Shown here: piece by piece, positions 2,610 through 18,414 of the stretch
How positions within the stretch are numbered: the stretch's first letter is position 1
Layout of the letters: each line of letters starts with the position of its first letter
Source: Candidatus Hodarchaeota archaeon
Lineage (GTDB): Archaea > Asgardarchaeota > Heimdallarchaeia > Hodarchaeales > Hodarchaeaceae
Direction: 5' to 3'
DNA length: 18,414 nt
NCBI GenBank assembly: GCA_016839785.1
Contig: JAEOTQ010000081.1
Coordinates: forward strand, 1-18,414
The notes under the pieces: generated by a model
Told to the model about the DNA's origin: nothing
Database searches by the model: none
What the model saw: the letters and a program-made list of their open reading frames with translations, nothing else
Program-made: the position numbers and the translations under genes

Positions 2610-2815
2610 GACTCCTAAGTAAACGAGAGGACTGACCATTTCCACACTAATTTAAGATTAGAGGCCCGTGTGCGATGAGTGTCCGCTTTTAAAGATCCGT
2701 TTCGTGTTTTCTTTTGAAGAAAGCATGCATCGCTTATCGGTTAGTGCGTGGCGGTCGGGCAGTACCCTTCTGGATAACCCGTAGACTAGAGGCGCCCATA
2801 TCCTGTTCCTCTCGT
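2610..2815 (+). repeat. Intergenic structured element, copy 1 (long, variant extension)
   Basis: GACTCCTAAG at 2610, core AACGAGAGGACTGACCATTTCCAC at 2622-2645, hairpin CTAAT-ttaag-ATTAG, then GCCCGTGTGCGATGAGTG. A GC-richer extension ends in TCCTCTCGT (2807-2815), complementary to core 2623-2631. Confidence 0.9.
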
Positions 2816-2954
2816 ACTGAGGACACGTTCCTCTCACGAATCCAACACGTCCGTAGAGAATCGCTAAACCCGAAAAATTCCATGAGAACGAAATGTCAAG
2901 GTCGGTATTCTTAAAAATGAGGGAAACCATGAGAAATAACAATTACAAGTTGGA

Positions 2955-4334
2955 GTGGAAAGACTTCTGATCAAAGAGCGTTCATTTCATTCGAAGTTTT
3001 TAATCTTCTTGGTCCTGACAGGCGTAATAAAGCTCTCGTTTCAGATTTCTACGATTGCTACAATTACTACAAATCAATCAAGTCAATTGTGTTTAGAATC
3101 TCCGGGGCTTGCAAATCAAAAAAAACACCCAAGAATGCACAATCTCAACATCCCACCTAGATCAGGATTGCTCCTTAGTACACGAAGAATAAGCGAAGAT
3201 ATGATCAATTCTCCTATTAGAATTCAGTCTGAAGCTCAGCTTCTTGAGTTAGGATTGCCAGGGAAGGGAACTCAGGAAGACCCATATTTGATATCTGGAC
3301 TGGTAATACAAGAAGATTTCGAACCATATTCGCGCGGTATCGCAATCAATAATACAAAATCATTCATTAAGATTATGAACTGCTCGGTCACAGGTCGGAC
3401 AGCTTTAGAGATAGAAAACGCCGCGAATTTAATCATAGCTAATTGTGAGTTCCAAGCGATGTGGTTTGATTTGAGAATAAGCCAGTGTCATAATCTACAG
3501 ATTTATAATAATACGGGTTATGAATCAGCTTCAATAGGAGATAGTCCAGAAATCTCAATATCTAGGAGTTATGATATTGCGTTCTTTAAGAATACTTGCC
3601 CGAGTATTAAGGTGTACAGGGGTAGTAACATTAACTTAACGGAGAATCTATTTAGGAATGACAATTACATTGCAATTGCGATATCGGGATCAAACAATAC
3701 TCGAATTGTGAATAATTACTGTGTGAATCCAGGAAATACAGGGATAAATCTATATGAAAGCAGTCAGTGTTCCATAGTCAACAATTTTTGCAATAGGTCA
3801 AAGACAGGGATTAGTTTAGAGTTTGGATGCGATACTAACAAAATCAGTAATAATACAATATTAAATTGTAGTCGGGGAATTTCCATCCATGGAGCAGCAG
3901 AAGAAAATATCATTAAAGAGAATATCGTAATTGGAAATTTCTGGGGGATCATTGTTGAACCAGACGGGAGAAATATATTCTATAAGATCTTCCCTGCGAA
4001 CAATCAAGTCTTTAAAAATGTCTTTCAGGACAGTCGCCGTCAAGGAGGATATGATTTAGGGACAAAAAATGTATACAGGTACAATTATTGGGGAGACTGG
4101 GTGACAAATTCCTCGGATGACAATCACGATGGAATTCTAGACGACCCCTATCCATTAGAAGGAGGAAAGAATTATGATCCATACCCCCTGGCTTCGAGAC
4201 AGGCGCTAGAAGATATTACAATCAGTTCGATCACCATTCCACCCTCTACTGGTATAGCCCAAAAAGAGATCATTTTGGGAGGGGCCATCATCATAGGCTT
4301 TTTGGTGGTTCGGATTTACCGAAAAAGAAAGTAG
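2955..4334 (+). CDS. Exported right-handed parallel beta-helix (NosD/CASH, pectin-lyase-like) protein with C-terminal membrane anchor
   Basis: N-terminal hydrophobic segment; GKGTQEDPYLI motif; repeated GIxL..S.NN.I.NN beta-helix units; NYWGDW...DGILDDPY...DPYPL; C-terminal TM followed by RKRK. Confidence 0.85.
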   Translation: MERLLIKERSFHSKFLIFLVLTGVIKLSFQISTIATITTNQSSQLCLESPGLANQKKHPRMHNLNIPPRSGLLLSTRRISEDMINSPIRIQSEAQLLELGLPGKGTQEDPYLISGLVIQEDFEPYSRGIAINNTKSFIKIMNCSVTGRTALEIENAANLIIANCEFQAMWFDLRISQCHNLQIYNNTGYESASIGDSPEISISRSYDIAFFKNTCPSIKVYRGSNINLTENLFRNDNYIAIAISGSNNTRIVNNYCVNPGNTGINLYESSQCSIVNNFCNRSKTGISLEFGCDTNKISNNTILNCSRGISIHGAAEENIIKENIVIGNFWGIIVEPDGRNIFYKIFPANNQVFKNVFQDSRRQGGYDLGTKNVYRYNYWGDWVTNSSDDNHDGILDDPYPLEGGKNYDPYPLASRQALEDITISSITIPPSTGIAQKEIILGGAIIIGFLVVRIYRKRK

Positions 4335-4409: not shown

Positions 4410-4535
4410 GTGATCACCAGACATAAGAGCAGAAAGCCCTTGAACACAGTCTATTAGACTCCTAAAGGCTATTATTTCTAAATAAACGAGAGGACTGACC
4501 ATTTCCACAATGTTAAAAGACAATAGTCCCATGGA
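4410..4535 (+). repeat. Intergenic structured element, copy 2
   Basis: AGACATAAGAGCAGAA 4419-4434, GACTCCTAAAGG 4457-4468, core AACGAGAGGACTGACCATTTCCAC 4485-4508 (identical to copy 1 core). Confidence 0.9.
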
Positions 4536-4613
4536 TGTTCGAAATAAAGATATTTATTCTGACATTTCTCGGTCCTTGGAATATTTTGACAAATAAATTT
4601 CTATAAACTCGTT

Positions 4614-6542
4614 TCAATAAACAGAACCGAGGTGCTTTCGATATTGTCTCTGCTGCTCGAAAGAATTGTGAATGAAGTAATACAAAGTAAAAACTAAAAT
4701 ATTTAGATAAAGGAACATACGAGGTTTGATCACAAGAAAAGTTCCATTGAGTAAATTATGGAATATAATAAAAATAAGAGTAATGAAAACAGAATATTTG
4801 TGAATAGTACGCAGGATTTTTCGATAAGATCTAACTTCTAAGACCAGAAGAAGACCAGAAACAGTAAAAATTATCCCAGAAATAAAACCAAGTGTTGCTA
4901 GTAATTGTCCCACATCATAACGGGTTGTAGGAAAAGCAAAAAATACGCTTGGAAAATCAAGAATAGCTGATAAATAGGAGGTCACATCTGAGAACTCCGA
5001 AAGAGATTTCACATGTCCATGCAAAACCATGTAATGAAATACAATAGATATTGCAAGGAGGGAGCCAGAAAAATAATGAAACCATAAAACTTGCTGTCTT
5101 AACCGTCGTTTCAATACAGGGAGGGTTAGATAAAAGCTAGTATAGAACAAAATGAAGGAAAATAATCCAATATAATGGCCAATTTCAGACAAAGGTATGA
5201 AAAGGCCAGTTTCTTGGTCAAAAAACGCAGGGATTAACCCAATCGGAAGAATATAAAAGGGAGTATGTGAGTCAGGAATCTCTAATAACTGAGCAACACC
5301 CCCTTCACTAAACGCACCGATAACAACTGTCCCCAGAGAGTGAGTAGCACATTTAAGATAAATGTTTTGGGCGATAATACCGATAATAGACATCAATCTA
5401 CGATATGAAAGATCAGGATTAGATTGTTGATCCATCCAAGTCATATTAGCAGATATAATTACATTGAGTTGAGCAGATTCAACCCAAGATTGATCTAACG
5501 CTACCTTTCTCAAGGAATTACGTGCATCTCCCTCGTAAAAGTGCATAAGAGAATGATTAGTCAAGGAGTAAGAATATATACCCATAGATAATCCTTTTAC
5601 TTCACCAACAACTAAACGAATATCGATAATGGATACATTTTCTGTGGGAAAATTAACATCTATGCTGTCATTCAAGATATCACTAATAATCGAAAGGGGG
5701 ATTAATCCACTAACATAGTCCCGAGTGGATTTGCGTTTCGCAATAGCTTGCTCTACAGTCATTTCTTCCGTATTTATCACGGATTGAACATCTAACTTCG
5801 AAAATCTCTTTAATTTACCCTGATCTTGACCAACAGGTAATATCATAAGAGGTTGTAATGATATGTGCAGCAATTCTTTAACTCGTGAGGCATTAAAATC
5901 TGAAATTATCCAGGTGTTTAAATTCAAAGAGGACAGTTGGAGAAGAAAATTCTGAAGAGCATGACCTACCTCTAAATGGACATACTGAATTCCTCTTGTG
6001 CCATAACGATCTGTAGTTCGATTAAAATCTACAATAATGTAGAATATAGTAGTAATATTAGAAACAGAATTCTGATCTTCACTCAAAAGAGCAGGTACTA
6101 ATTGAGATTCGTTATTAATAGAAGAATGTAGCTTTAAAACGTGTTCATCGGAATTATAACTATAGTATCCACTACTGAAATGAGAATTTCCATTTTGTTG
6201 TATAAAAATCTTTAATGGATAAGTAGCACCTGCAGAAGGAACGGTTCGAAACCCTGGACCATGAGTGGTACCTTGTAACGCCCACAGGAGCTGAGACAGT
6301 TCTTCAACACTTAGATCATGAGGATACAAATTAGTAGTTACCTTTGATTGATGAATAGCAGTACTTAAGGGAAGATGACCAATTAAATCAGGTTCAGGTA
6401 AAGCTAAATTATCGGATTCGAAGGGAATGAATTCTATGATGATAGCTAATATGGAGAAAACAAGGACAACTGCTGCAACTACTAATTTCAGCTGTGTAAC
6501 GGTTGGAAAGGCGGTTTTCATAATTGATGGCAACTTAAACAA
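4614..6542 (-). CDS. Tandem SagB/ThcOx-type nitroreductase domains fused to a C-terminal ferric-reductase/cytochrome b-like membrane domain
   Basis: LSQLLWALQG, RTVPSAGATYPL, RYGTRGIQYVHLEVGHALQN. The second domain has AIAKRKSTRDY and IAQNIYLKCATHSLGTVVIGAF. C-terminal TM helices carry two H-x13-H pairs. The start codon is uncertain (TTG, or the downstream ATG of MKTAF). Confidence 0.85.
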   Translation of the reverse strand: MFKLPSIMKTAFPTVTQLKLVVAAVVLVFSILAIIIEFIPFESDNLALPEPDLIGHLPLSTAIHQSKVTTNLYPHDLSVEELSQLLWALQGTTHGPGFRTVPSAGATYPLKIFIQQNGNSHFSSGYYSYNSDEHVLKLHSSINNESQLVPALLSEDQNSVSNITTIFYIIVDFNRTTDRYGTRGIQYVHLEVGHALQNFLLQLSSLNLNTWIISDFNASRVKELLHISLQPLMILPVGQDQGKLKRFSKLDVQSVINTEEMTVEQAIAKRKSTRDYVSGLIPLSIISDILNDSIDVNFPTENVSIIDIRLVVGEVKGLSMGIYSYSLTNHSLMHFYEGDARNSLRKVALDQSWVESAQLNVIISANMTWMDQQSNPDLSYRRLMSIIGIIAQNIYLKCATHSLGTVVIGAFSEGGVAQLLEIPDSHTPFYILPIGLIPAFFDQETGLFIPLSEIGHYIGLFSFILFYTSFYLTLPVLKRRLRQQVLWFHYFSGSLLAISIVFHYMVLHGHVKSLSEFSDVTSYLSAILDFPSVFFAFPTTRYDVGQLLATLGFISGIIFTVSGLLLVLEVRSYRKILRTIHKYSVFITLIFIIFHNLLNGTFLVIKPRMFLYLNILVFTLYYFIHNSFEQQRQYRKHLGSVY

Positions 6543-6851: not shown

Positions 6852-6916
6852 AACGAGAGGCCTGAAAATTTCCACACTAATTGGGAATTAGTAGCCCTTG
6901 TGCGATTAGTGGCAGC
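6852..6916 (+). repeat. Intergenic structured element, copy 3
   Basis: Core AACGAGAGGCCTGAAAATTTCCAC 6852-6875, perfect hairpin ACTAATT-ggg-AATTAGT 6876-6892, then AGCCCTTGTGCGATTAGTGGCAGC. Confidence 0.9.
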
Positions 6917-7135
6917 TATGAATCTATGGTATGTTAAAGGAAAAAGTGAAGAGAATCGATCACCACTGGGATAAATATCGGAAAAAGAGACGATCTCTGT
7001 TTCAGGTTAAATTTTGCCTTCTTAACATTAGATAAAAATGAAATGGTTCTCAAACTTCATAAAGAGAGTGAATGATACTTCAGTAAGAAGAAATTTTGAA
7101 TTCATCAGTTATATATAATCAACTATCCGTAACTT

Positions 7136-7675
7136 ATGAGGGAACAATTGACTGATATTAATCAAAAGAATAAGTATATAATTCGAGTCTCTTTATTATG
7201 CCATCCTGAGGACCTACTGTTCCCGTTAATCCGTGCATTGATTCAAAAATATAAAGGACAAACGACAAATCAAACATTTGACGACTTAACTCTCACTGCT
7301 TCAACAATAAACATCCGGATTGCAAATAGAATTGTAAAAGTGATTTTAGTTCAACCTATTGGTCGTGGATTCTTTAACAAAATGTTCGGTCACCACTTTC
7401 GTTCTAGTGGAGCCATTATTGCATTTTCAAAAGATAACAATGATTCATTTGAAGCATCAAGGGCCTTATACCAGCGTTTCAAGGATATCAATACTGCTGA
7501 TGTTCCAATTGCATTTGTTGGGATCCAAGAGTCACCTGATGACCTTGTTACTGAGGAAGCAATCCAGCTGGAGGTTGGTACCTCTGAATTCTATTATTTC
7601 ATTCAGCATAATGATTTCGAAGTATTAGGGAAAATCCTCCTCTCCTTAGTAACAAAAATCTTCACACCAGCTTAG
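7136..7675 (+). CDS. Small Rab/Arf-like GTPase-fold protein with degenerate nucleotide-binding motifs
   Basis: 179 aa. YIIRVSLL (beta1), VKVILVQPIGRGFF (G3 region), SSGAIIAFSKDNNDSFE and DVPIAFVG align by eye with the Rab pattern GASGAIIVFD..N.ESF / VPIVLVGNK. GxxxxGKS, DxxG and NKxD are absent. Confidence 0.7.
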   Translation: MREQLTDINQKNKYIIRVSLLCHPEDLLFPLIRALIQKYKGQTTNQTFDDLTLTASTINIRIANRIVKVILVQPIGRGFFNKMFGHHFRSSGAIIAFSKDNNDSFEASRALYQRFKDINTADVPIAFVGIQESPDDLVTEEAIQLEVGTSEFYYFIQHNDFEVLGKILLSLVTKIFTPA

Positions 7676-7749
7676 CAGTTGTTATTTACAGCTACATATA
7701 GGTATGGAAATAGAGAATTAGTAAGAATTGAGAAAATTAAAAGAGAGAA

Positions 7750-7895
7750 GGACCACTAGACATAAGACCAGAATTTGCTTTAAAAACAACACACACTCTC
7801 TTTGACTCCTGAAGGCTTTTTTTTCAAAAAAAACGAGAGGACTGACAATTTCCACATTGTTTCCAAAACAATAGCCCGTGGGCGATTCGTGGGAG
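7750..7895 (+). repeat. Intergenic structured element, copy 4
   Basis: AGACATAAGACCAGAA 7758-7773, GACTCCTGAAGG 7804-7815, core 7832-7855, perfect hairpin ATTGTTT-cca-AAACAAT 7856-7872, AGCCCGTGGGCGATTCGTGGGAG. Confidence 0.9.
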
Positions 7896-8167
7896 TAAAT
7901 ATGAATCATCCGATAAATTCTCTAGATAAGCCTATATCACGGCTTGACCAGTACACTTGGACTTTGTAGAAGAATACAGAACATGGCAGTAAATAATGAA
8001 AGTATACTGGAAATCAGTATAATGGGCAATAATATGAAAATAAGTACGCACTTTGGCAGTTCCTATAGATATAACAAGTATTGGTTACAAATCGTATCTA
8101 ACAAAAATCTTATAAGAGAAAAGTTGGCTTAAGAGAATACCAACATGGATTACTGGGACGCCCGAAG

Positions 8168-10354
8168 ATGAAACTATCTTTATGGGGAAGTATCATTTTA
8201 ATTCTCGTCTTTACTCTCTCAAATCGAGAAAATATTGACTTTTTATGCCCAGATATGTTAATGAAGAATCATCACCAGTCAAAAATCACTTTAATTGGTA
8301 AAAAATCAACAGTTGCACCTTTATTCCCATTTTCTAATAATTTTGGCAATTTAACAAGTCATGATGAACCAGTTTACAGTGTAGCCTTTTCTCCAGATGA
8401 AAAAGTTCTTGCTTCTTCAGGGGGAGATGGATCTATTCATTTATGGAATATTTCGGATGGTACAATAATTTCTAAGCTACAAAGCCATTTTTACGATGTA
8501 ATTACAGTTGATTTTTCTTCAAACGGTAAGACACTTGCTTCCGCGGGTCGGTTTGATAAAAAAGTAAATATCTGGGATATACCCTCAAAAAAACTCGTAA
8601 AAACTTGGAATCATACATTTACGGGTCGAAACCTAGCTTTTTCACCCATTAATAACAATATATTAGCTATCCCTAAGAATAATTCAGTTATTATCAAAAA
8701 TATAACAACTGGTGTCATTGTTCAGACCCTGATTGGACATACAGGCCTTGTCACTTCTATAGCTTTTTCACCCGATGGATCATTGATTGCTTCAGGATCT
8801 ACGGACAATACTGTTAAATTATGGAACGTGTCATCTGGAGTAGAGGTTAGAACCTTTTCAGGCCATTCTGATGACATTCACACGTTGGCCATTTCTGCCA
8901 ATGCACAGATAATCGCCACTGGTGGGAAAGATTCAAAAATTATTGTCTGGGATGTAAGCACGGGAGGGGCCCTTCAAACGCTCCTCAGCCACGAAGGAGC
9001 GGTTAATTCACTGGAATTTTATCCTTTGGATCCCGCAATTATAGTTTCGGGAGGAGGAAGTGTTACGTATGATTCACCAATTAAATTTTGGAATATAACC
9101 TCTGGGAAATTAGTGGATTCACTTATAGGGCATCAAGATACCGTTAATACTATTGCATTTTCTCATAATGGAAAATTTCTAGCCTCGGGTAGTAGTGATC
9201 GTGTAATTAAACTTTGGGGAAATTTTCCTTCCCTGTTTATTAATACTTCAATTGATTACTGGCCTACTTCTACTCCTGAAGATCAGAACCTGAATTCATC
9301 ATTATTGGATCAAATCTATTTCCCTGAATTACATAGTCTATTAGTTCTACGAAATGGGAAGCTAGTTCATGAGAAGTATTATACTGGGGATAGATATCAG
9401 TTCACTAGCAAATCTAAACATGCTCTTTTCTCTGTAACTAAAAGCTTCACCTCAACTCTGATTGGGATTGCACTTGACAAGGGATTCATTAGTAATATCA
9501 ATCAAAAAGTCCTTGATTTCTTTCCAGAGAAGACCTTCTGTAATATGAATTCTTTAAAAGAAGCAATCACTATTGAGCATCTCCTTACGATGACAACTGG
9601 ATTAGATTGGTACGATAAAGTCGATTATTTACCTCTAGCTTGTAGTTTAGATATGGTGCAATTTACGCTAGATAGACCTATGAGAAGTGAACCTGGCTCC
9701 GAAGTGAATTATAACAGCGGAGCCTCTCATCTTTTGGCTGTAATCCTACAAAAAGTGTCAGGTCTTCCTATAATGGAATTTGCATTGAAATATCTTTTTG
9801 AACCCTTAGCCATAGAAAAATCTGATATATCGTGGATGGCGAATTCTCTTGGCCAAGTTCTTGGAGGTAATGGGTTATATCTAACCCCTCGTAATATGGC
9901 GAAATTAGGCCAGCTTTATTTGAATAACGGTTCTTGGAACGGGCAAGATATTGTGTCTACTAATTGGATTACTGTTTCTACCAGTAATCATGGAGTTTTT
10001 CGGCATCATCCGTATTCTATAACAGCGCCCATGCAATATGGGTATCATTGGTGGCCCTATGAGAGTACGTGTTTTAATGGATATTATGCACAAGGATCTG
10101 ATGGACAATTCATTTTTGTAATACCTCAATACAATCTAGTAATTGTCTGCACTTCTGGCGTATGGTGGCGTGATGCATACTTTTTTGCGGATAAAATTTT
10201 CAAAGCGATTATTCCTGACTCAGATCAAGTTTCAGTCTCCACAACTGATGACATAAAAAAATCGACGGATATCACTCAATCCACAAATTGGCTATCTATA
10301 CTCCCGATTTCCCTATCTTTGATTCTGCTCGTACTATTCCGAAAACGTCCATAG
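8168..10354 (+). CDS. Exported WD40-repeat / beta-lactamase-family (class C-like) serine hydrolase fusion with C-terminal TM anchor
   Basis: Signal-like N-terminus; about 7 WD40 repeats (GHTGLVTSIAFSPDGSLIASGSTDNTVKLWN); SxxK (SVTK), HLLTMTTG, YNS, LTPRNMAKLGQLYL, YGYHWW; Ser/Thr linker, TM, FRKRP. Confidence 0.9.
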   Translation: MKLSLWGSIILILVFTLSNRENIDFLCPDMLMKNHHQSKITLIGKKSTVAPLFPFSNNFGNLTSHDEPVYSVAFSPDEKVLASSGGDGSIHLWNISDGTIISKLQSHFYDVITVDFSSNGKTLASAGRFDKKVNIWDIPSKKLVKTWNHTFTGRNLAFSPINNNILAIPKNNSVIIKNITTGVIVQTLIGHTGLVTSIAFSPDGSLIASGSTDNTVKLWNVSSGVEVRTFSGHSDDIHTLAISANAQIIATGGKDSKIIVWDVSTGGALQTLLSHEGAVNSLEFYPLDPAIIVSGGGSVTYDSPIKFWNITSGKLVDSLIGHQDTVNTIAFSHNGKFLASGSSDRVIKLWGNFPSLFINTSIDYWPTSTPEDQNLNSSLLDQIYFPELHSLLVLRNGKLVHEKYYTGDRYQFTSKSKHALFSVTKSFTSTLIGIALDKGFISNINQKVLDFFPEKTFCNMNSLKEAITIEHLLTMTTGLDWYDKVDYLPLACSLDMVQFTLDRPMRSEPGSEVNYNSGASHLLAVILQKVSGLPIMEFALKYLFEPLAIEKSDISWMANSLGQVLGGNGLYLTPRNMAKLGQLYLNNGSWNGQDIVSTNWITVSTSNHGVFRHHPYSITAPMQYGYHWWPYESTCFNGYYAQGSDGQFIFVIPQYNLVIVCTSGVWWRDAYFFADKIFKAIIPDSDQVSVSTTDDIKKSTDITQSTNWLSILPISLSLILLVLFRKRP

Positions 10355-10403: not shown

Positions 10404-10673
10404 ACTCTATTAGACTCCTTAAGACAATTTTTAATAGTAAACGAGAGGACTGACCCTTTCCACACTATTTTCCAATTAGTAGCCCGTGTGCGATTAGTGG
10501 CAGCGTATTAGAAAACACTAAACATATCGGAAAACCCGCCACGCGTATTTTTTATAGGAAAAACTGCTCTAGCAACGGGATTTTTCTCTAGAAAGATCCC
10601 AGCACTCGTTTACCATCTCATGGTTATCGGTGCCAATCCCCATGGCATATCGCTGATGGCAAAATGGATTCAT
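10404..10673 (+). repeat. Intergenic structured element, copy 5 (long form, candidate ncRNA)
   Basis: GACTCCTTAAG at 10413, core 10440-10463, AGCCCGTGTGCGATTAGTGGCAGC, and a ~170 nt extension shared with copy 7, including a 26-nt exact match (10596-10621 = 13465-13490). Confidence 0.9.
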
Positions 10674-10693
10674 CCTTTCAAGGTTCGTTACGT

Positions 10694-11734
10694 TCATTTA
10701 ATTAGATTTGCTGTTTTTTGAATAGCTCGTTCTGCATCCTGGGTTATCCTATCGATTATTGAGGCGACTCCTTTGATACTATCGATAAGCCCAATACTTT
10801 GCCCAAGGAGGACAGCCCCATCATGGATATTACCTTGATAAGCTAAATCATAAGCTTGAGCTGCTTTAGCTAACTCTTCCGTACTCATTACTACTTCCTG
10901 AGCTAATTTTTCTTCTTTTTTAGTTACACGATTATGTCCTAGACTATACTTATTCTTCCAAAGGCGAATCGGCCCTAAAATCCCTGTCACAAGCGTTGTA
11001 TCTGGGGCTCTAGCAGGGGGAACGACGTTTTTATAAACCTCATGGAATTCGCATTCTTTAGAAGCGATAAATCTGGACCCCATGGCGATTGCTCCTGCAC
11101 CGAGGGATAAGGCGGAAGCTAAACCTTCCCCTGTAGCAAATCCGCCACAGGCTATCCGAGGTATAAGGGGAAATCGTTGCTGGACTTGCTGGAGAAGGAC
11201 AAGGGTACTTACATTTTCATAAGACTGGTGGCCCCCTCCTTCACTCCCTGTGACTACTAATCCATCAACCCCAGCATCCACACATTTCTCTGCTAACCAG
11301 AGGGCAGGTGCAACGTGAAAATGGACAATCTGCGAGACCTCTTTTAGCTCTTGGAACGTTTTCGATTGGGGAAGTACTTTAGCGGACCCTGCACTAGTTA
11401 AAACGTATCGACACTGTTCTTTAATTTTAGGATTATCCAGAATGAATTCTGGAATTTCATCACACAAAGTCTTGGCATATGGCTCTAATCGAGAAGTTCT
11501 TATATTAAATCCAAAAGGTTTGTCGGTATGCTCAACGACATATTGCATATTTTGTTTCATTTCTTCAATCGGATCTTTATCCTTGCTTAAGAGGCCAATT
11601 TGAGATAAGACACCTAATCCTCCCGCTTCAGAGACAGCTACAGTTAAATGTGTAGTATGGAAGGGAGCCATGGGCGCAGCAATTATAGGATACTTAATTC
11701 CTAACATTTTTGTGATCTGTGTTTCGAATGGCAT
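10694..11734 (-). CDS. Nitronate monooxygenase / FabK-like FMN-dependent oxidoreductase
   Basis: LGIKYPIIAAPMA, AVSEAGGLGVL, TDKPFGFNI, GSEGGGH, IACGG...LSLGAGAIAMGSRFIASKE, GQSIGLI. Confidence 0.92.
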   Translation of the reverse strand: MPFETQITKMLGIKYPIIAAPMAPFHTTHLTVAVSEAGGLGVLSQIGLLSKDKDPIEEMKQNMQYVVEHTDKPFGFNIRTSRLEPYAKTLCDEIPEFILDNPKIKEQCRYVLTSAGSAKVLPQSKTFQELKEVSQIVHFHVAPALWLAEKCVDAGVDGLVVTGSEGGGHQSYENVSTLVLLQQVQQRFPLIPRIACGGFATGEGLASALSLGAGAIAMGSRFIASKECEFHEVYKNVVPPARAPDTTLVTGILGPIRLWKNKYSLGHNRVTKKEEKLAQEVVMSTEELAKAAQAYDLAYQGNIHDGAVLLGQSIGLIDSIKGVASIIDRITQDAERAIQKTANLIK

Positions 11735-11870: not shown

Positions 11871-11993
11871 GTGACCTTCAGATATAAGACCAGAAACCAC
11901 TTCAAACATACTTTTACGACTCCTTAAGGCTTTTTCCTAGAAATACGTGAGGACTGAAAATTTCCACCTTTCTAGTAAGAAATATCCAGTGGG
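11871..11993 (+). repeat. Intergenic structured element, copy 6
   Basis: AGATATAAGACCAGAA 11880-11895, GACTCCTTAAGG 11918-11929, core TACGTGAGGACTGAAAATTTCCAC 11944-11967, hairpin TTTCT-agta-AGAAA. Confidence 0.85.
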
Positions 11994-12144
11994 TGAGGAG
12001 AACCAAAACGCTTCTAAGAATGCTTAAGGTTAATATGAGTACGAAATGAAACGAACTTTTCATAACGAAATGTACATTCACCGAATTTCTGTAATCTGAA
12101 AATATTTAAACGACTTTTGAAAGAGAGACAACTTGTGATTTTAT

Positions 12145-13266: not shown

Positions 13267-13543
13267 GTGACTGTCAGAGACAAAGCCAGAACTGTAATCA
13301 ACACACTTATTACGACTCCTTGAGGTTTTTTCCTAGAAATACGAGATGACTGAAAATTTCTACACTATTTTAAGAATAGTAGCCCGTGTGCGATTAGTGG
13401 GAGCCAGCTAAACATGTCGAAAAACCTCCACGCGTACACCACTGCTCTATCAAAGGGATGTTCTATCCCAGCACTCGTTTACCATCTCATAGTTATCGTC
13501 GCCAATCCCCATGGCTTTTCGCTGATGACAAAATGGATTCATT
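13267..13543 (+). repeat. Intergenic structured element, copy 7 (most complete form, about 277 nt, candidate ncRNA)
   Basis: Contains all blocks: AGAGACAAAGCCAGAA 13276-13291, GACTCCTTGAGG 13314-13325, core 13340-13363, hairpin ACTATT-ttaag-AATAGT, AGCCCGTGTGCGATTAGTGGGAG, and the extension to AAAATGGATTCAT. Confidence 0.9.
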
Positions 13544-13641
13544 TTCAGAGTTGTGAAAGGAATGAAAACTTCAAATATCTCTTTGTACTCTAAGACTCAC
13601 TTAGAATGAAATCAATATAAGATCTTGGGAGACAAATTGGT

Positions 13642-16131
13642 ATGACAAATTTAAATTTGAAAAAAAGCATGATTATCATATTAATTATGAATTTGGTTAT
13701 TAGTGGAAGTTTTATTCAGTTATTCGATCTCGATTATGATGTTAATCAAATATCAAGGAATAAAAATGATGGTAAGAAAAGAAAAAACGGATTATCTAGC
13801 AATACAAGATATGAAAATGAAATAAATCTAGCTATCCAAACATCAGGAATTATAACAGAGAATTATGACCAATTTCGTGAAGGAATATCAACCAATTTGA
13901 CAATAAGTGAAGAAAATGGAGTCCTACTAGAGAAAAGCATTGAGGAGTTAACATGGAAAGAAATCACCCTCCCAGAAAATAAACCAAGTGAAAGAATGGG
14001 CCATAAAATGGTCTATAATTCAAAATCCGACAAATACATACTGTTTGGAGGAACTGGTACGGAGGGTCTCAAAAACGATACATGGATCTATGATCCCCAA
14101 ACAAATATATGGACAGAAAAAGCTCCCTCAGTCGCACCAGCGGCAAGATATTATCACGATATGGTTTATGACCCAAAACAAGATAAGGTTATCTTATTTG
14201 GAGGGTATCTTGGGGGATCTCAACTGGGTGACACATGGGCATATGATCTAATTACAAATACATGGAGCGAAATGAATCCTTCAGTAAAACCAAGTCCAAG
14301 ATATTTCAATCTAATGATATATGATTCCTTTTCAGAAATAGTGTTATTATTTGGAGGCCGTGCAGGTGCGAGTAATTATAGAGATACTTGGATTTATGAC
14401 CTTGGATCAGATAATTGGACCAATATGAATCCTCCTACTTCCCCTCCTACAAGAATTGCAGGAGCGATGGCTTATAATTCATTATCCAATAAAGTAATAT
14501 TGTTTGGGGGGCATGTTGGTGGAAGTTCATTTCTTACTGATACTTGGATATATGAAGTAGCCGCAAATAATTGGACTCAAATGTTTCCTGACACTTCACC
14601 AGGGGCAAGACGGCTAGCAGGAGTGTGTTTTGATACGAGTATTGCTAAAACGGTAATATTTGGGGGATATGGGGCGTCGAGGTTTGGAGATACATGGACA
14701 TATGATCTTGTAACAAACACTTGGAATCAATTGGACCCATCAATCACGCCTCCAGCAAGAGATTCTCATACAATGGTTTATGATTCTAACTCTGAAAATA
14801 TACTTGTGTTTGGTGGACTCAGCGGTTCCTACTTGAATGATGCATGGATTTATCCTGAGGAGAAAATATGTAGAACTGGTATACTTCAATCTAGAATTAT
14901 TCCTTTAGGTAATATCTATAATATTACTGGAAATCTTATCTGGGATCCGTTAGTACAACCTCTAGGTACATCATTGAAACTCCAAATTGGTTTTTCCAAT
15001 ACTACACACAATGAGGATTTTGTATATACCAATTTAACGACAACGGAGATGATATTTACTCGTTTTGCCCAATATCTATGTTATAATGTAACTTTCGAAT
15101 CAGATATTGATCAACTTATTTCCCCAAATCTCAAGACTCTAACAATTGAATATCGATTAGATAATCCACAACCAGAAATTGAAATTATTAATCCCCCAAA
15201 TAATAGTATTGTTGAGGGGCTAGTAAGTATTACAGTACTCGCTAGTTCTCCCAATGGGATCACAAAAGTGGCCTTTTTTCTTGGTGGAACTTTACTGGTA
15301 TATGATTATACTGCCCCTTTTAAGTTCACATGGGATACCAGAGGGGTTAATAATGGAAATGTCTCACTTAGCGTGATTGCAACAACCGTTCTTGGAAGAG
15401 AGAATATTGATTCAATTCAACTTACAGTGGATAATCCTATTACTCCAGAATTAATTGAAACTACGTCAAGTCCTCCCCAAAATCTTTTAGCTATTGTTGA
15501 TGATTATTTCATTATATTAGATTGGACTCCTCCTAGTAATAATGGCGGATCCGCGATCTTATATTACAAAATCTATCGTGGAACCATTAGTGGGGAATAT
15601 TCGGAGCATGGTATATCCTCAAAAACAAACTATACTGATACGACAGTGAGTAGTGACACGAGGTATTATTATGTGGTAACTGCGGTTAACGATATCGGAG
15701 AAAGTTATTTTTCAGAGGAAACAAGTAGTATTCCTACAGGTGTAATAGAACCCACTCATAAGGCTCCGAGTATCCCTAGATTCCTTTCAGTTAACGCTGA
15801 GGATCAAATTGTGACACTAACATGGACTCCTCCTAGTGATGACGGCGGAGTTGATATTATCAAGTACCATGTCTATCGTGGTACTTCCAGTGGCTCGTAT
15901 ATGCTGATTGGAGTCGTAATAGGGGCACTTCAGCGGTATAATGATAGTTTAATTATCCGCGGGGATACCTATTATTATGTAGTAACTGCAGTAAATTCAT
16001 TTGGAGAAAGTCAATTCTCCAATGAGGTGAGTATCACAATACCTGGTGCAGCGGCTGGCACCTTTCCGGGACTGTTTACAGTCCTTTTGTCATTAATCGT
16101 AATTATAGGTATTACTCGAAAGCGTAAGTGA
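13642..16131 (+). CDS. Cell-surface Kelch-repeat / Ig-like / 2x fibronectin type III protein with C-terminal membrane anchor
   Basis: Six Kelch repeats (P..R..H.MVYD....KVILFGG.....DTW.YD..TN.W); Ig-like IINPPNNSIVEG...APFKFTWDT; two FN3 domains (LxWTPPS..GG..I..YxxYRG...YYYVVTAVN..GES); FPGL, TM, RKRK. Confidence 0.92.
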   Translation: MTNLNLKKSMIIILIMNLVISGSFIQLFDLDYDVNQISRNKNDGKKRKNGLSSNTRYENEINLAIQTSGIITENYDQFREGISTNLTISEENGVLLEKSIEELTWKEITLPENKPSERMGHKMVYNSKSDKYILFGGTGTEGLKNDTWIYDPQTNIWTEKAPSVAPAARYYHDMVYDPKQDKVILFGGYLGGSQLGDTWAYDLITNTWSEMNPSVKPSPRYFNLMIYDSFSEIVLLFGGRAGASNYRDTWIYDLGSDNWTNMNPPTSPPTRIAGAMAYNSLSNKVILFGGHVGGSSFLTDTWIYEVAANNWTQMFPDTSPGARRLAGVCFDTSIAKTVIFGGYGASRFGDTWTYDLVTNTWNQLDPSITPPARDSHTMVYDSNSENILVFGGLSGSYLNDAWIYPEEKICRTGILQSRIIPLGNIYNITGNLIWDPLVQPLGTSLKLQIGFSNTTHNEDFVYTNLTTTEMIFTRFAQYLCYNVTFESDIDQLISPNLKTLTIEYRLDNPQPEIEIINPPNNSIVEGLVSITVLASSPNGITKVAFFLGGTLLVYDYTAPFKFTWDTRGVNNGNVSLSVIATTVLGRENIDSIQLTVDNPITPELIETTSSPPQNLLAIVDDYFIILDWTPPSNNGGSAILYYKIYRGTISGEYSEHGISSKTNYTDTTVSSDTRYYYVVTAVNDIGESYFSEETSSIPTGVIEPTHKAPSIPRFLSVNAEDQIVTLTWTPPSDDGGVDIIKYHVYRGTSSGSYMLIGVVIGALQRYNDSLIIRGDTYYYVVTAVNSFGESQFSNEVSITIPGAAAGTFPGLFTVLLSLIVIIGITRKRK

Positions 16132-16170: not shown

Positions 16171-16246
16171 GCTTTCTAAAAAGAACGAGAGGACTGACAC
16201 TTTCCACTTTGTTTGAAGACAATAGCCCGTGTGCGATGAGTGGGAG
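16171..16246 (+). repeat. Intergenic structured element, copy 8
   Basis: Core AACGAGAGGACTGACACTTTCCAC 16184-16207, hairpin TTGT...ACAA, AGCCCGTGTGCGATGAGTGGGAG. Confidence 0.9.
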
Positions 16247-16315: not shown

Positions 16316-18196
16316 TCAAAGGGTTTTTTCGAAAAAATCACAGATTTTCATTATTTTTACTCTTCTATTCTTTTTTCGATAAATACCATGACCCTCGTCA
16401 TCAAATGGCAGCTTTTCATAATCTATATTGTGTTTTATCAGTTCTTCTTCTACAACTTTAACGTTTTCAGGAGTGACATTAGGATCGTTCATGCCCTGAA
16501 CAATTAACACGTTTCCAGTAATGTTTTGGATATAGTTAATAGGTGAACCCTCTTTATATCTCTCAGGGACTGCTTGAGGGGAACCACCCATCATTTCCTC
16601 ACTATAAGGACGGATATCAGGTCGGGTAGTTTCATAATCCACAATGAGGTCGGTCATACCACACACAGGAGCACTGGCAGAAAAAATGTCTGGAAATTTA
16701 GTAATTCCATACCAGGCCGAGAAACCACCATAACTAGTCCCTGTAATGCCGATTTTTGCGTCAGATGGCAAATATCTATTTATAAGCGCTTTTGCACCTG
16801 CAGCAATATCTTCTTGTTCATTGCTACCCCAACCCCCTACTTTAATTAGCTCTCGAAACTTGATCCCATACCCTGTTGAACCACGATAATTAGGATCCAA
16901 AACAACGAAACCTCGTGAAACAAAATATTGGATTTCCGTATTTAAAGCATCCTCAGAATGGAATGTTGGACCTCCGTGAACATAGACTATACATTTATTA
17001 TTAGGATCAATGGGAGTATATACCCAGCCATGAATAGGTTTATTATCGAAAGAAATCCATTCAAATTCTTTTGCTTGAGTTAGATGAGACTGTTGAACTT
17101 TCAATTTCTCAAAATTATCAAATAGAAAGTCAAAGTCGTTAAGTGTTAAATTATTGATATCCCTAGTAGGGAAAGAAACCAAAGTTTCTGGCTGGATAGA
17201 GCTATAGTAAGAACCGATCCACGTTCTAGAATCGATTGGGAAAGTTGGTAGGAGTGTTCCCGTTTCAAACCTAGGAAAGGGAACTAGTGTCCTATCATTC
17301 AAATTATAAAAGTAAACTGATTGCTTTGCTTTGATAATTTCGATAAGAACTAGAATATTAGGATCAAACCGACTCACATACGCCTTGGAGAAATCATATT
17401 TACGATTTGGAGTTTCAGGGGACTCCAAAATCCAGAAAACTTCTTCCTTGTCTACAGAAAAAATACCAGCCAGACGCTTATCTAGTCTCTTGTCATTAAA
17501 GGAATCAGTTACAAAAACAATATTTCGAGAATCTGGAAGCCAACTAGCCTCGACTTTTGCTTTTTTACCAAAATTAAGGATTTCTCTGTCATCCTCACCA
17601 TCGACATTTATAAGCCAATACTGCCTGCCTGCAGGATCGATATCACTTCTAGAATAGAGTAATCTGGATCCTTCTAAGTTTAATTGAGAATAATTCCATG
17701 CAGGTTTTAGAACGGAGGTTAAATGATGGATTTCATTTTTATTTTCGACATTTTGAGCATATAGATGAAAAATCTCGGTTTCTTTCTTGGTTTGCGGATC
17801 AAAATTAGCAAAATAATACATTAAATCGCCCTTTGGGGCTATTTCTGAACCTCTGAGATAAAAATCTGGAGTTTCCTTGGTTAAAGCGTGCATTTTCTTC
17901 GGTTCATCTAGAAAAACCCGAAATAACGCGATTCTTTCATTTCGCGCTTTATCTTCAGCAACTATTACAGATTTCGAGTCAGGCCACCATTTTGTGAAAT
18001 AAGTAAGCTCTTCGGTTTCAGTAAGAACATCTAACTTCCTATCTTCATCCTTATAGTCAATTAAAAACACATCTACATTAGGATGGAGACCAAAAATCGT
18101 TAAAGCGATGTTTTGATTAGCTATTGCCCTTTCAGCAGAAAATATTTGAGAGATATTTAACAATTCATCAATAAATGTTTCAGAGCCAAGATCCAT
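16316..18196 (-). CDS. S9 family peptidase (acylaminoacyl/prolyl oligopeptidase): beta-propeller plus alpha/beta hydrolase
   Basis: VHGGP, PNYRGSTGYG, nucleophile GTSYGG, QGMNDPNV (Asp), DEGHG (His). Confidence 0.93.
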   Translation of the reverse strand: MDLGSETFIDELLNISQIFSAERAIANQNIALTIFGLHPNVDVFLIDYKDEDRKLDVLTETEELTYFTKWWPDSKSVIVAEDKARNERIALFRVFLDEPKKMHALTKETPDFYLRGSEIAPKGDLMYYFANFDPQTKKETEIFHLYAQNVENKNEIHHLTSVLKPAWNYSQLNLEGSRLLYSRSDIDPAGRQYWLINVDGEDDREILNFGKKAKVEASWLPDSRNIVFVTDSFNDKRLDKRLAGIFSVDKEEVFWILESPETPNRKYDFSKAYVSRFDPNILVLIEIIKAKQSVYFYNLNDRTLVPFPRFETGTLLPTFPIDSRTWIGSYYSSIQPETLVSFPTRDINNLTLNDFDFLFDNFEKLKVQQSHLTQAKEFEWISFDNKPIHGWVYTPIDPNNKCIVYVHGGPTFHSEDALNTEIQYFVSRGFVVLDPNYRGSTGYGIKFRELIKVGGWGSNEQEDIAAGAKALINRYLPSDAKIGITGTSYGGFSAWYGITKFPDIFSASAPVCGMTDLIVDYETTRPDIRPYSEEMMGGSPQAVPERYKEGSPINYIQNITGNVLIVQGMNDPNVTPENVKVVEEELIKHNIDYEKLPFDDEGHGIYRKKNRRVKIMKICDFFEKTL

Positions 18197-18231: not shown

Positions 18232-18279
18232 TACATAAGACTATTTCTAAAAAGAATTGTGAGGACTAATACTGTCCAG
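18232..18279 (+). repeat. Intergenic structured element, copy 9 (degenerate)
   Basis: ACATAAGAC, then TTTCTAAAAAGA (shared with copy 8), then ATTGTGAGGACTAATACTGTCCAG 18256-18279, matching the copy 8 core at 17 of 24 positions. Confidence 0.6.
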
Positions 18280-18414
18280 CATTAACAGTACGATCTACTG
18301 AAGGCCTTCTGAGAGAGCTTCAGAATCTTGTAAAATTTTGCCCAGACGTTTGATCTAACCTTCTAATAACCCTTACATATCCGCCAGAAGACTTTTGGAA
18401 TGAATTAGTACAAA

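Follow-up and report, generated by a model that had tools for sequence, protein, structure and literature searches.

The described systems that come closest to the locus reported here are islands anchored at RNA genes and integron-like arrays. Genomic islands at transfer RNA (tRNA) and transfer-messenger RNA (tmRNA) genes (PMC4383910) and the tycheposon islands of Prochlorococcus (bioRxiv 10.1101/2020.12.28.424599) are portrayed, in the available portions of these sources, as inserting at the 3' end of a stable-RNA gene, with regeneration of the gene, displaced 3' fragments that mark the ends of elements, and successive insertions whose cargo units accumulate into islands, many of which lack an integrase; the locus described below shares these features. 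Integrons have been reported in Archaea, according to the accessible part of one report (PMC9668308). The nearest published case that we encountered is HeimM2 of Candidatus Heimdallarchaeum, a single 8-kb element that adjoins a 16S gene and carries a homing-endonuclease-like gene, as the available part of its account presents it (PMC8813620). Here, we analyzed an 18,414-nucleotide contig of a Candidatus Hodarchaeota archaeon (order Hodarchaeales; GenBank assembly GCA_016839785.1, contig JAEOTQ010000081.1), called the window throughout, in which single genes or gene pairs are separated by copies of a ~72-nt repeat that contains a hairpin of conserved pairing and variable sequence. We read the window as belonging to cassette arrays at the 3' end of the 23S ribosomal RNA (rRNA) gene, with the hairpin as a junction module, and put the probability of this reading as a whole at roughly 0.5. 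Cassette arrays behind a 23S gene would be a variant of the RNA-gene-anchored islands and integron-like arrays that are already known.

The ~17 nt that follow the motif TTTCCAC in each repeat form an AT-rich hairpin of 5-7 bp whose two arms change together, and every stem listed in the original prediction, which was made from the letters of the window, was found in its place: CTAAT/ATTAG (2647-2661), ACTAATT/AATTAGT (6876-6892), ATTGTTT/AAACAAT (7856-7872), ACTA/TAGT (copy 5), TTTCT/AGAAA (11969-11982), ACTATT/AATAGT (13364-13380), and TTGT/ACAA (16209-16222). When the 19 good copies from the window's own genome (G000) are aligned, four of the seven hairpin pairs have changed on both sides and 82.7% of cells are paired. 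The whole-structure covariation score of this alignment is 0.291 (shuffles, 0.145 +/- 0.020; none of 500 reaches 0.291), and sliding the partner by 1-3 columns brings the paired cells down to 40-55%. A second alignment, of 94 copies from loci fetched in related genomes, was model-fitted and hence leans towards structure; it has double changes at all seven hairpin pairs, one of which occurs as UA 31 times, CG 16, AU 12, and GC 4. Without any alignment, the longest perfect stem in the 73 unique segments between the flanking blocks averages 4.90 bp, against 3.25 +/- 0.09 bp in composition-matched shuffles, and a perfect stem of at least 6 bp is present in 27 of the 73, compared with 1.4% of shuffled segments. 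Across the whole genome, perfect 7-bp hairpins number 1495, versus 1080-1181 in block shuffles, a roughly 1.3-fold excess.

The stem is thus kept despite its changing sequence, well above AT-matched shuffles, and the repeat decay in simple, neutral form against which the original prediction had argued is not enough to account for the covariation and the excess of stems. AT-matched shuffling was the control that the prediction itself had named, and shuffled segments form such stems far less often. The hairpins fall into ~8-10 recurring types, so by our reading the independent compensatory events number about 10, not seventy. The further proposal that selection acts on a single-stranded fold, be it RNA or single-stranded DNA (ssDNA), came through in part: compensated pairing speaks for it, whereas its RNA half is unsupported, there being no strand bias among wobble pairs and no Rfam family besides rRNA.

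The flanking blocks give the hairpin its setting. The prediction had put it between two sequence-conserved blocks, and these are present, but they do not make up an independent element: one is antisense to the 23S 3' end and the other to its trailer. The right block, which follows the hairpin, corresponds in reverse complement to the last ~25 nt of 23S rRNA, or to the last ~315 nt in some copies, and in some copies homology continues for 170-300 nt past it. This assignment follows from matches to the Rfam model of archaeal large-subunit (LSU) rRNA (LSU_rRNA_archaea, RF02540) that run into the right block: in a relative, positions 7759-8068 of locus L045 (minus strand) match positions 2721-2973 of RF02540 at 174.8 bits, and the match ends in the right block, GTGCGATTAGTGG, while window positions 13388-13476 (minus strand) match positions 2885-2973 of the same model at 50.4 bits. 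The left block precedes the hairpin and is antisense to the 23S 3' trailer, the leader-pairing strand of the processing stem; each repeat includes ~110 nt of trailer. We assign the left block so because the true 23S gene of a related genome, G008, reads ...CACAAGGGCTA-ACCG-TGTGGAAATT... and continues into a trailer with the same blocks as the left side of the repeat, and because this trailer cofolds with the leader at -64.8 kcal/mol in a long intermolecular stem; three cassette copies reach -43 to -60 kcal/mol. The repeat blocks are therefore almost certainly a displaced 23S 3' end and trailer, carried antisense in the window. At its whole length, the window had no match in Rfam 15 at gathering score or at E <= 0.01, the LSU rRNA match of the 23S fragment being a separate one, and a tRNA scan of the window found none.

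The genome G000 comprises 4.04 Mb in 248 contigs at 36% GC, and the window is an entire contig of 18.4 kb. Nine copies of the repeat (J1 to J9) lie in it, every one on the plus strand, with the layout ACGAGAGGACTGAnnnTTTCCAC, then ~17 variable nt, then AGCCCGTGTGCGATkAGTGGsAG. TTTCCAC occurs eight times in the window, seven of them on the plus strand (shuffle mean 3.06; 0 of 200 shuffles reach eight), and the cores of the nine copies end at 2645, 4508, 6875, 7855, 10463, 11967, 13363 (TTTCTAC), 16207, and ~18283 (degenerate). The ~26 repeat copies of G000 are confined to 8 short contigs and are not spread across the 4 Mb. The parts of the nine junctions in the window are as follows.

2623-2645, minus strand: J1 left block with its core (ACGAGAGGACTGACCATTTCCAC), antisense to the 23S 3' trailer
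2646-2662, no strand: J1 hairpin, CTAAT/ATTAG
2663-2685, minus strand: J1 23S-end block (GGCCCGTGTGCGATGAGTGTCCG)
2723-2852, minus strand: inner piece of the last ~315 nt of 23S rRNA (identity to the 23S of relatives, 83-87%), shorter than the long form by an internal deletion
4486-4540, minus strand: J2 junction, with left block and core at 4486-4508 and a hairpin with a weak stem at 4509-4524
within 4486-4540, minus strand: J2 23S-end block, degenerate and joined through a deletion to the inner part of the 23S fragment
6853-6875, minus strand: J3 left block and core, without the GACTCCTTAAGGC part of the trailer
6876-6892, no strand: J3 hairpin, ACTAATT-GGG-AATTAGT, the first clean example of the original prediction
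6893-6915, minus strand: J3 23S-end block, short form (AGCCCTTGTGCGATTAGTGGCAG)
7751-7832, minus strand: J4 distal trailer-derived part (GACCACTAGACATAAGACCAGAA ... GACTCCTGAAGGC) and a second hairpin, T8-C-A8
7833-7855, minus strand: J4 left block and core
7856-7872, no strand: J4 hairpin, ATTGTTT-CCA-AAACAAT, the second clean example
7873-7895, minus strand: J4 23S-end block, short form
10441-10503, minus strand: J5 junction, with left block and core at 10441-10463, hairpin at 10464-10480 (two arms of differing types, T.T mismatch), and 23S-end block at 10481-10503
10504-10693, minus strand: onward 23S 3' fragment of J5, containing a 78-nt repeat at 10596-10673
11945-12005, minus strand: J6 junction, with left block and core at 11945-11967, hairpin at 11968-11983 (TTTCT/AGAAA), and a degenerate 23S-end block
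13341-13403, minus strand: J7 junction, with left block and core (TTTCTAC) at 13341-13363, hairpin at 13364-13380 (ACTATT/AATAGT), and 23S-end block at 13381-13403
13388-13545, minus strand: J7 23S rRNA 3' fragment, with the Rfam LSU_rRNA_archaea match over 13388-13476
16185-16246, minus strand: J8 junction, with left block and core at 16185-16207, hairpin at 16208-16223 (TTGT/ACAA), and 23S-end block at 16224-16246
18257-18331, minus strand: J9 degenerate junction copy (nhmmer E = 2.5e-5)

Comparison with true 23S genes sets the hairpin apart from the rest of the repeat. It is absent at all six true 23S ends, which have ACCG in its place (G008, G005, and the metagenome contigs L102, L118, L119, and L130; L119 is nearly identical to G005, leaving ~5 independent ends). 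For cassettes that recur in several genomes, homology covers the trailer-derived part as far as TTTCCAC(A) and stops there; the hairpin and the sequence past it are different. At least 14 truncated copies end at the core or just past it, and three copies without a core retain the hairpin and the 23S end. One 17-nt hairpin is identical in three genomes with differing flanks, and hairpins with mixed arms also occur, as at window 10464-10480. Two further hairpins of variable, AT-rich sequence are found in junctions. The second consists of a T-run and then an A-run and is bounded by GACTCCTTAAGGC and ACGAGAGG; it occurs at window 7810-7834, where its flanks are GACTCCTnAAGGC and ACGAGAGG, and in the same place elsewhere; over 43 unique segments its mean stem is 4.65 bp versus 3.08 +/- 0.11 bp in shuffles, and to judge by its sequence it could be a two-way oligo-T terminator. 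The third, seen in more distant species, is flanked by ACGAkAG and AATTTCCAC.

The junctions divide the window into small units of cargo. Between successive copies there is one gene or one gene pair, on either strand and of unrelated functions.

2955-4334, plus strand: J1-J2, beta-helix/NosD-like protein
4614-6542, minus strand: J2-J3, nitroreductase-domain protein; same cassette in G004 and G019, ~89% identity
7136-7675, plus strand: J3-J4, Ras-like small GTPase, weak Pfam match; same cassette in G004, 92.6% identity
8168-10354, plus strand: J4-J5, WD40 and beta-lactamase-domain protein
10694-11734, minus strand: J5-J6, nitronate monooxygenase-like protein; common to G004, 90% identity
12145-13112, plus strand: J6-J7, two genes, a YbjQ-like gene and a 204-aa membrane-like open reading frame (ORF); common to G004, 79% identity
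13642-16131, plus strand: J7-J8, Kelch/Ig/fn3 repeat protein
16316-18196, minus strand: J8-J9, S9 prolyl-oligopeptidase-family protein

Four of these cassettes are found again on a single contig of a relative (G004:C196), with their order changed and their orientation kept, and one of the four also in G019. The 127 junctions that we placed are co-oriented in all 32 junction-bearing contigs. In G008 the array starts at the true 23S gene, which is followed by at least 8 junctions with 23S tails, and extends for ~52 kb. In G005 the true 23S gene is followed by three genes and then by a second copy of the last ~22 nt of 23S, ACCG, and trailer; the insert is a clean three-gene unit between near-identical, hairpin-less direct repeats (L048 2060-2240 and 5822-5950; G005:C44), and it is the cleanest young event that we observed. 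Of 22 genomes of the genus, 11 have two or more 23S 3' fragments, as against none of 61 from the other families of the class, and a covariance model of the repeat (R1) matches 15 of 21 congeneric genomes and none of the 79 tested from outside the family. Public relatives with the junction pattern are metagenome-assembled genomes (MAGs) labelled Hodarchaeota, Heimdallarchaeota, or Promethearchaeota; three of 23 stretches matched in named genomes, all bacterial MAGs, were set aside as chance matches within GC-rich coding DNA, and a search of viral contigs for the pattern gave 0 matches. Of 150 array ORFs scanned against Pfam, 24 match Ras, 21 Roc, 10 Arf, and 8 PIN, the four most frequent families. 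Taken together, a gene-cassette array built at the 23S end is the probable arrangement.

How far do the known systems account for such an array? As at islands in tRNA genes, displaced 23S 3' ends lie beyond the inserts with an intact gene at the near end (G008 and G005), and it is by the logic of those islands that each insertion would have brought or duplicated a tail and trailer. The target here differs, being the 23S rRNA end and its processing-stem trailer in place of a tRNA gene, and no integrase was seen here in any unit examined. We know of no counterpart of the hairpin module in tRNA/tmRNA islands or tycheposons. With integrons the arrays share co-oriented sites that bound one- or two-gene units of unrelated function, reordered among relatives; an unfolded site beside the fixed gene and cassette sites with a structure-conserved, sequence-variable hairpin near the apparent boundary; and PIN-type toxin genes in the cargo. 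They differ in lacking IntI or any other tyrosine recombinase on array contigs, in having a local 5-7 bp hairpin only, where attC is a whole-site imperfect palindrome, in showing no RYYYAAC/GTTRRRY boxes (by eye, against the consensus), in being homologous to the native site on both sides, over ~135 nt or more, and in carrying cargo on either strand with an rRNA gene as anchor. HeimM2 is likewise a mobile element of a Heimdall-group archaeon beside an rRNA gene and has leucine-rich-repeat cargo, but its account, in the part available, mentions no array, rRNA-tail repeats, or hairpin (PMC8813620). The left block of the repeat corresponds to the 3' strand of the archaeal pre-rRNA processing stem with its bulge-helix-bulge motif, as the accessible part of one study describes it (PMC12918454); array copies differ from this stem in that they have no leader of their own and in that the leader-pairing segments of the native site are partly swapped for local hairpins. 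In the literature covered, including the available text of PMC11529989 and PMC8813620 and with supplementary tables outside its scope, we saw no account of gene-cassette arrays located behind a 23S gene.

Under the reading that we favor, gene cassettes would insert repeatedly at the 23S 3' end, each insertion bringing or duplicating the unit of 23S end and trailer so that rRNA processing stays intact, and later shuffling of cassettes would occur through recombination between junctions. The hairpin would stand in for the native ACCG, with the 23S-end block on one side and the core TGTGGAAA (plus-strand TTTCCAC) on the other, in the region where many truncated copies break off. Its pairing would matter and its sequence would not. 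It would most likely act as DNA, as a folded single strand or small cruciform, and would mark the cassette-borne site, so that the cassette hairpin and the native site would parallel the folded attC and the unfolded attI of an integron. By this analogy the hairpin may tentatively be assigned a role as a DNA-level junction or recombination module. More ambitious, and rather unlikely on present evidence, is an "rDNA integron" in one genus of Hodarchaeales: a gene-capture system at the 23S 3' end in which a folded-DNA cassette site would recombine with the hairpin-less native site, the enzyme being either one not recognised so far or a host factor whose usual substrate is the rRNA tail, and in which small GTPases and other Asgard signature genes would be shuffled between species.

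A number of observations weigh against the favored reading. Folded as ssDNA on both strands, six window copies gave z scores from +0.75 to -1.99, with 0 of 12 below -2. About 12 of the 127 array junctions have no hairpin, nor does the young G005 insert at either of its repeats, which argues that the hairpin is not required for insertion; together with its lack at every true 23S end, the hairpin-less junctions make it an optional module of cassette copies. On the 23S side the copies end at varying points (after ACGG, TAGTCC, GTGCG, or GTGGSAG, or at ~315 nt), which looks like decay or homologous recombination and not like a single precise crossover. Hairpin identity is 0.71 between pairs of copies that share an upstream cassette, against a background of 0.51, with only five such pairs informative and with single-linkage cassette families that merged paralogous GTPase cassettes; other cases have the same right block with differing hairpins. 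No tyrosine recombinase lies on array contigs, the PF00589 matches in G000, G002, G004, G008, and G014 all being elsewhere, and Resolvase and LAGLIDADG_3 matches are likewise only on non-array contigs. The transposase family Y1_Tnp (PF01797) is found in 0 of 5 genomes, and the top 25 Pfam families of the 150 array ORFs include no recombinase family; the arrays are cut by contig ends, beyond which an integrase is possible. Further, neither a 23S gene nor its leader was assembled in G000, for which adjacency to 23S rests on relatives, and a search of the relatives' genomes with RF02540 also failed to recover rRNA in several of them. In 13 aligned long-form copies the sarcin-ricin region retains 90-100% identity while the overall difference from the G008 gene is 18-27%; this pattern suggests that the displaced 315-nt tails have been exchanged with working genes or were recently part of them, and such rRNA-like conservation fits homologous exchange with the real gene no worse than any other account.

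The pairing itself could have arisen without any function in the hairpin. Template-switch correction of quasi-palindromes could also hold the arms complementary in the absence of selection on the fold, and a possible, though unlikely, account is that the hairpin is a functionless AT-rich palindromic insertion in dead copies of the rRNA tail, its arms kept alike by such template switching or by conversion between copies, while cassettes move by homologous recombination between the ~150-nt repeats. The poor ssDNA folds, the variable 23S-side ends, and the lack of any recombinase found on the arrays are what this account would lead one to expect; the young G005 insert has no need of a hairpin, and the second and third variable hairpins point to a general tendency of the junctions. 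Nor is there an excess of G.T over A.C among the cells that are not Watson-Crick pairs (20 versus 14), A.A and T.T being the commonest mismatches, which also fits DNA better than a single RNA strand. However, ~82% pairing is held genus-wide while three stem positions pass through up to four pair types, stem positions 1, 3, 6, and 7 stay A, T, T, and T, and the short blocks between hairpins have kept their sequence in hundreds of copies, although those have ceased to serve a ribosome. Also against this account, the genome-wide excess of such hairpins is only 1.3-fold.

Strand symmetry bears equally on the idea that the hairpin acts in RNA, which we consider improbable. It might shield false 23S ends and trailers from the processing machinery in read-through transcripts of the rRNA operon (minus strand of the window), help to end transcription between cassettes, or form a helix of a plus-strand antisense RNA, and wobble pairs without strand bias do not suggest any of these. 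In favor of an RNA role, the hairpin is placed ~7 nt ahead of the 3' end that Rfam gives for 23S and adjoins the processing stem, and pairing of the copies with the leader is still possible; at all six true 23S ends, however, the hairpin is missing. Archaea, those of the Asgard group included, cut their 23S rRNA at bulge-helix-bulge motifs and circularise it, according to the available part of one study (PMC12918454). The T-run and A-run of the second hairpin would yield an oligo-T tract on either strand, and archaeal RNA polymerase terminates at such tracts; most G000-type hairpins, however, lack a T-run, and with cargo on either strand the junction is not a fixed 5' or 3' signal of a gene. 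TTTCCAC on the plus strand can pair with GTGGGAG via G.U pairs, an outer helix that RNAalifold also drew and that we dropped, since it shows no real covariation in either alignment. Least probable by far is a free-standing hairpin element unrelated to rRNA, such as a miniature inverted-repeat transposable element, an IS200/IS605-type end, a repetitive extragenic palindromic (REP)-like element, or a small RNA gene. Many copies, strand polarity, and a hairpin between conserved blocks would have suggested one, but those blocks are an rRNA end and trailer, unlike the flanks of IS200/IS605 or REP/RAYT-type elements, the G000 copies cluster on their few short contigs, and, besides the missing Y1 transposase, there is no Rfam family and no viral contig with the junction pattern.

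Several other candidates were considered and set aside. A C/D-box, k-turn, hammerhead, group II intron end, origin-recognition box, or Xer/dif site does not fit rRNA-derived blocks. The sequence ACGAGAGGAC resembles a sarcin-ricin loop, but the 23S fragments are on the other strand, and other species have ACGATAGG or ACGAAAGG in its place; we regard the resemblance as a coincidence. What looks like a small ORF on the minus strand, at 10596-10673 and again at 13465-13542, is a 78-nt repeat with 92% identity between its copies; it is a piece of 23S rRNA and no gene. Contigs from four DNA runs contain many junction-junction joints, the sides of which are only 20-37 nt at 90% likeness; they were not counted as excision because such short sides may derive from other junction copies or other organisms.

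If the favored reading holds, a lineage often placed nearest to eukaryotes would have a dedicated hot spot behind its 23S rRNA gene for capturing and reshuffling single genes. This would suggest a specific and testable way in which "eukaryotic signature" gene families could have expanded and been exchanged among Asgard archaea, and would give an example of cassette arrays without a recognisable integrase. As the sole junction feature that separates cassette copies from the native site, the hairpin is a natural handle on the machinery. The repeats also have a practical side: rRNA-tail copies of this kind fragment assemblies, and annotation may take them for small ORFs or RNA genes, the 78-nt 23S-derived repeat being one such trap for gene callers.

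Some minor observations concern the rRNA operon and the cargo. The 23S gene of G008 contains an insert of ~320 nt with no obvious ORF, upstream of GCTGGGTTTAGACC (L046 ~14305-14626, G008:C8), and a LAGLIDADG-type ORF lies within the 16S region of the same operon (G008:C9 2500-2730). Several small GTPases of the arrays are fused to leucine-rich repeats (loci of G000, G002, G004, G008, G014, and G019; for example, L001 2509-6872). In the window, the tandem 153-nt periodicity at 13964-14816 within the Kelch-repeat gene reflects ordinary protein repeats, and a WD40 propeller and a beta-lactamase-family domain are united in the single ORF at 8168-10354.

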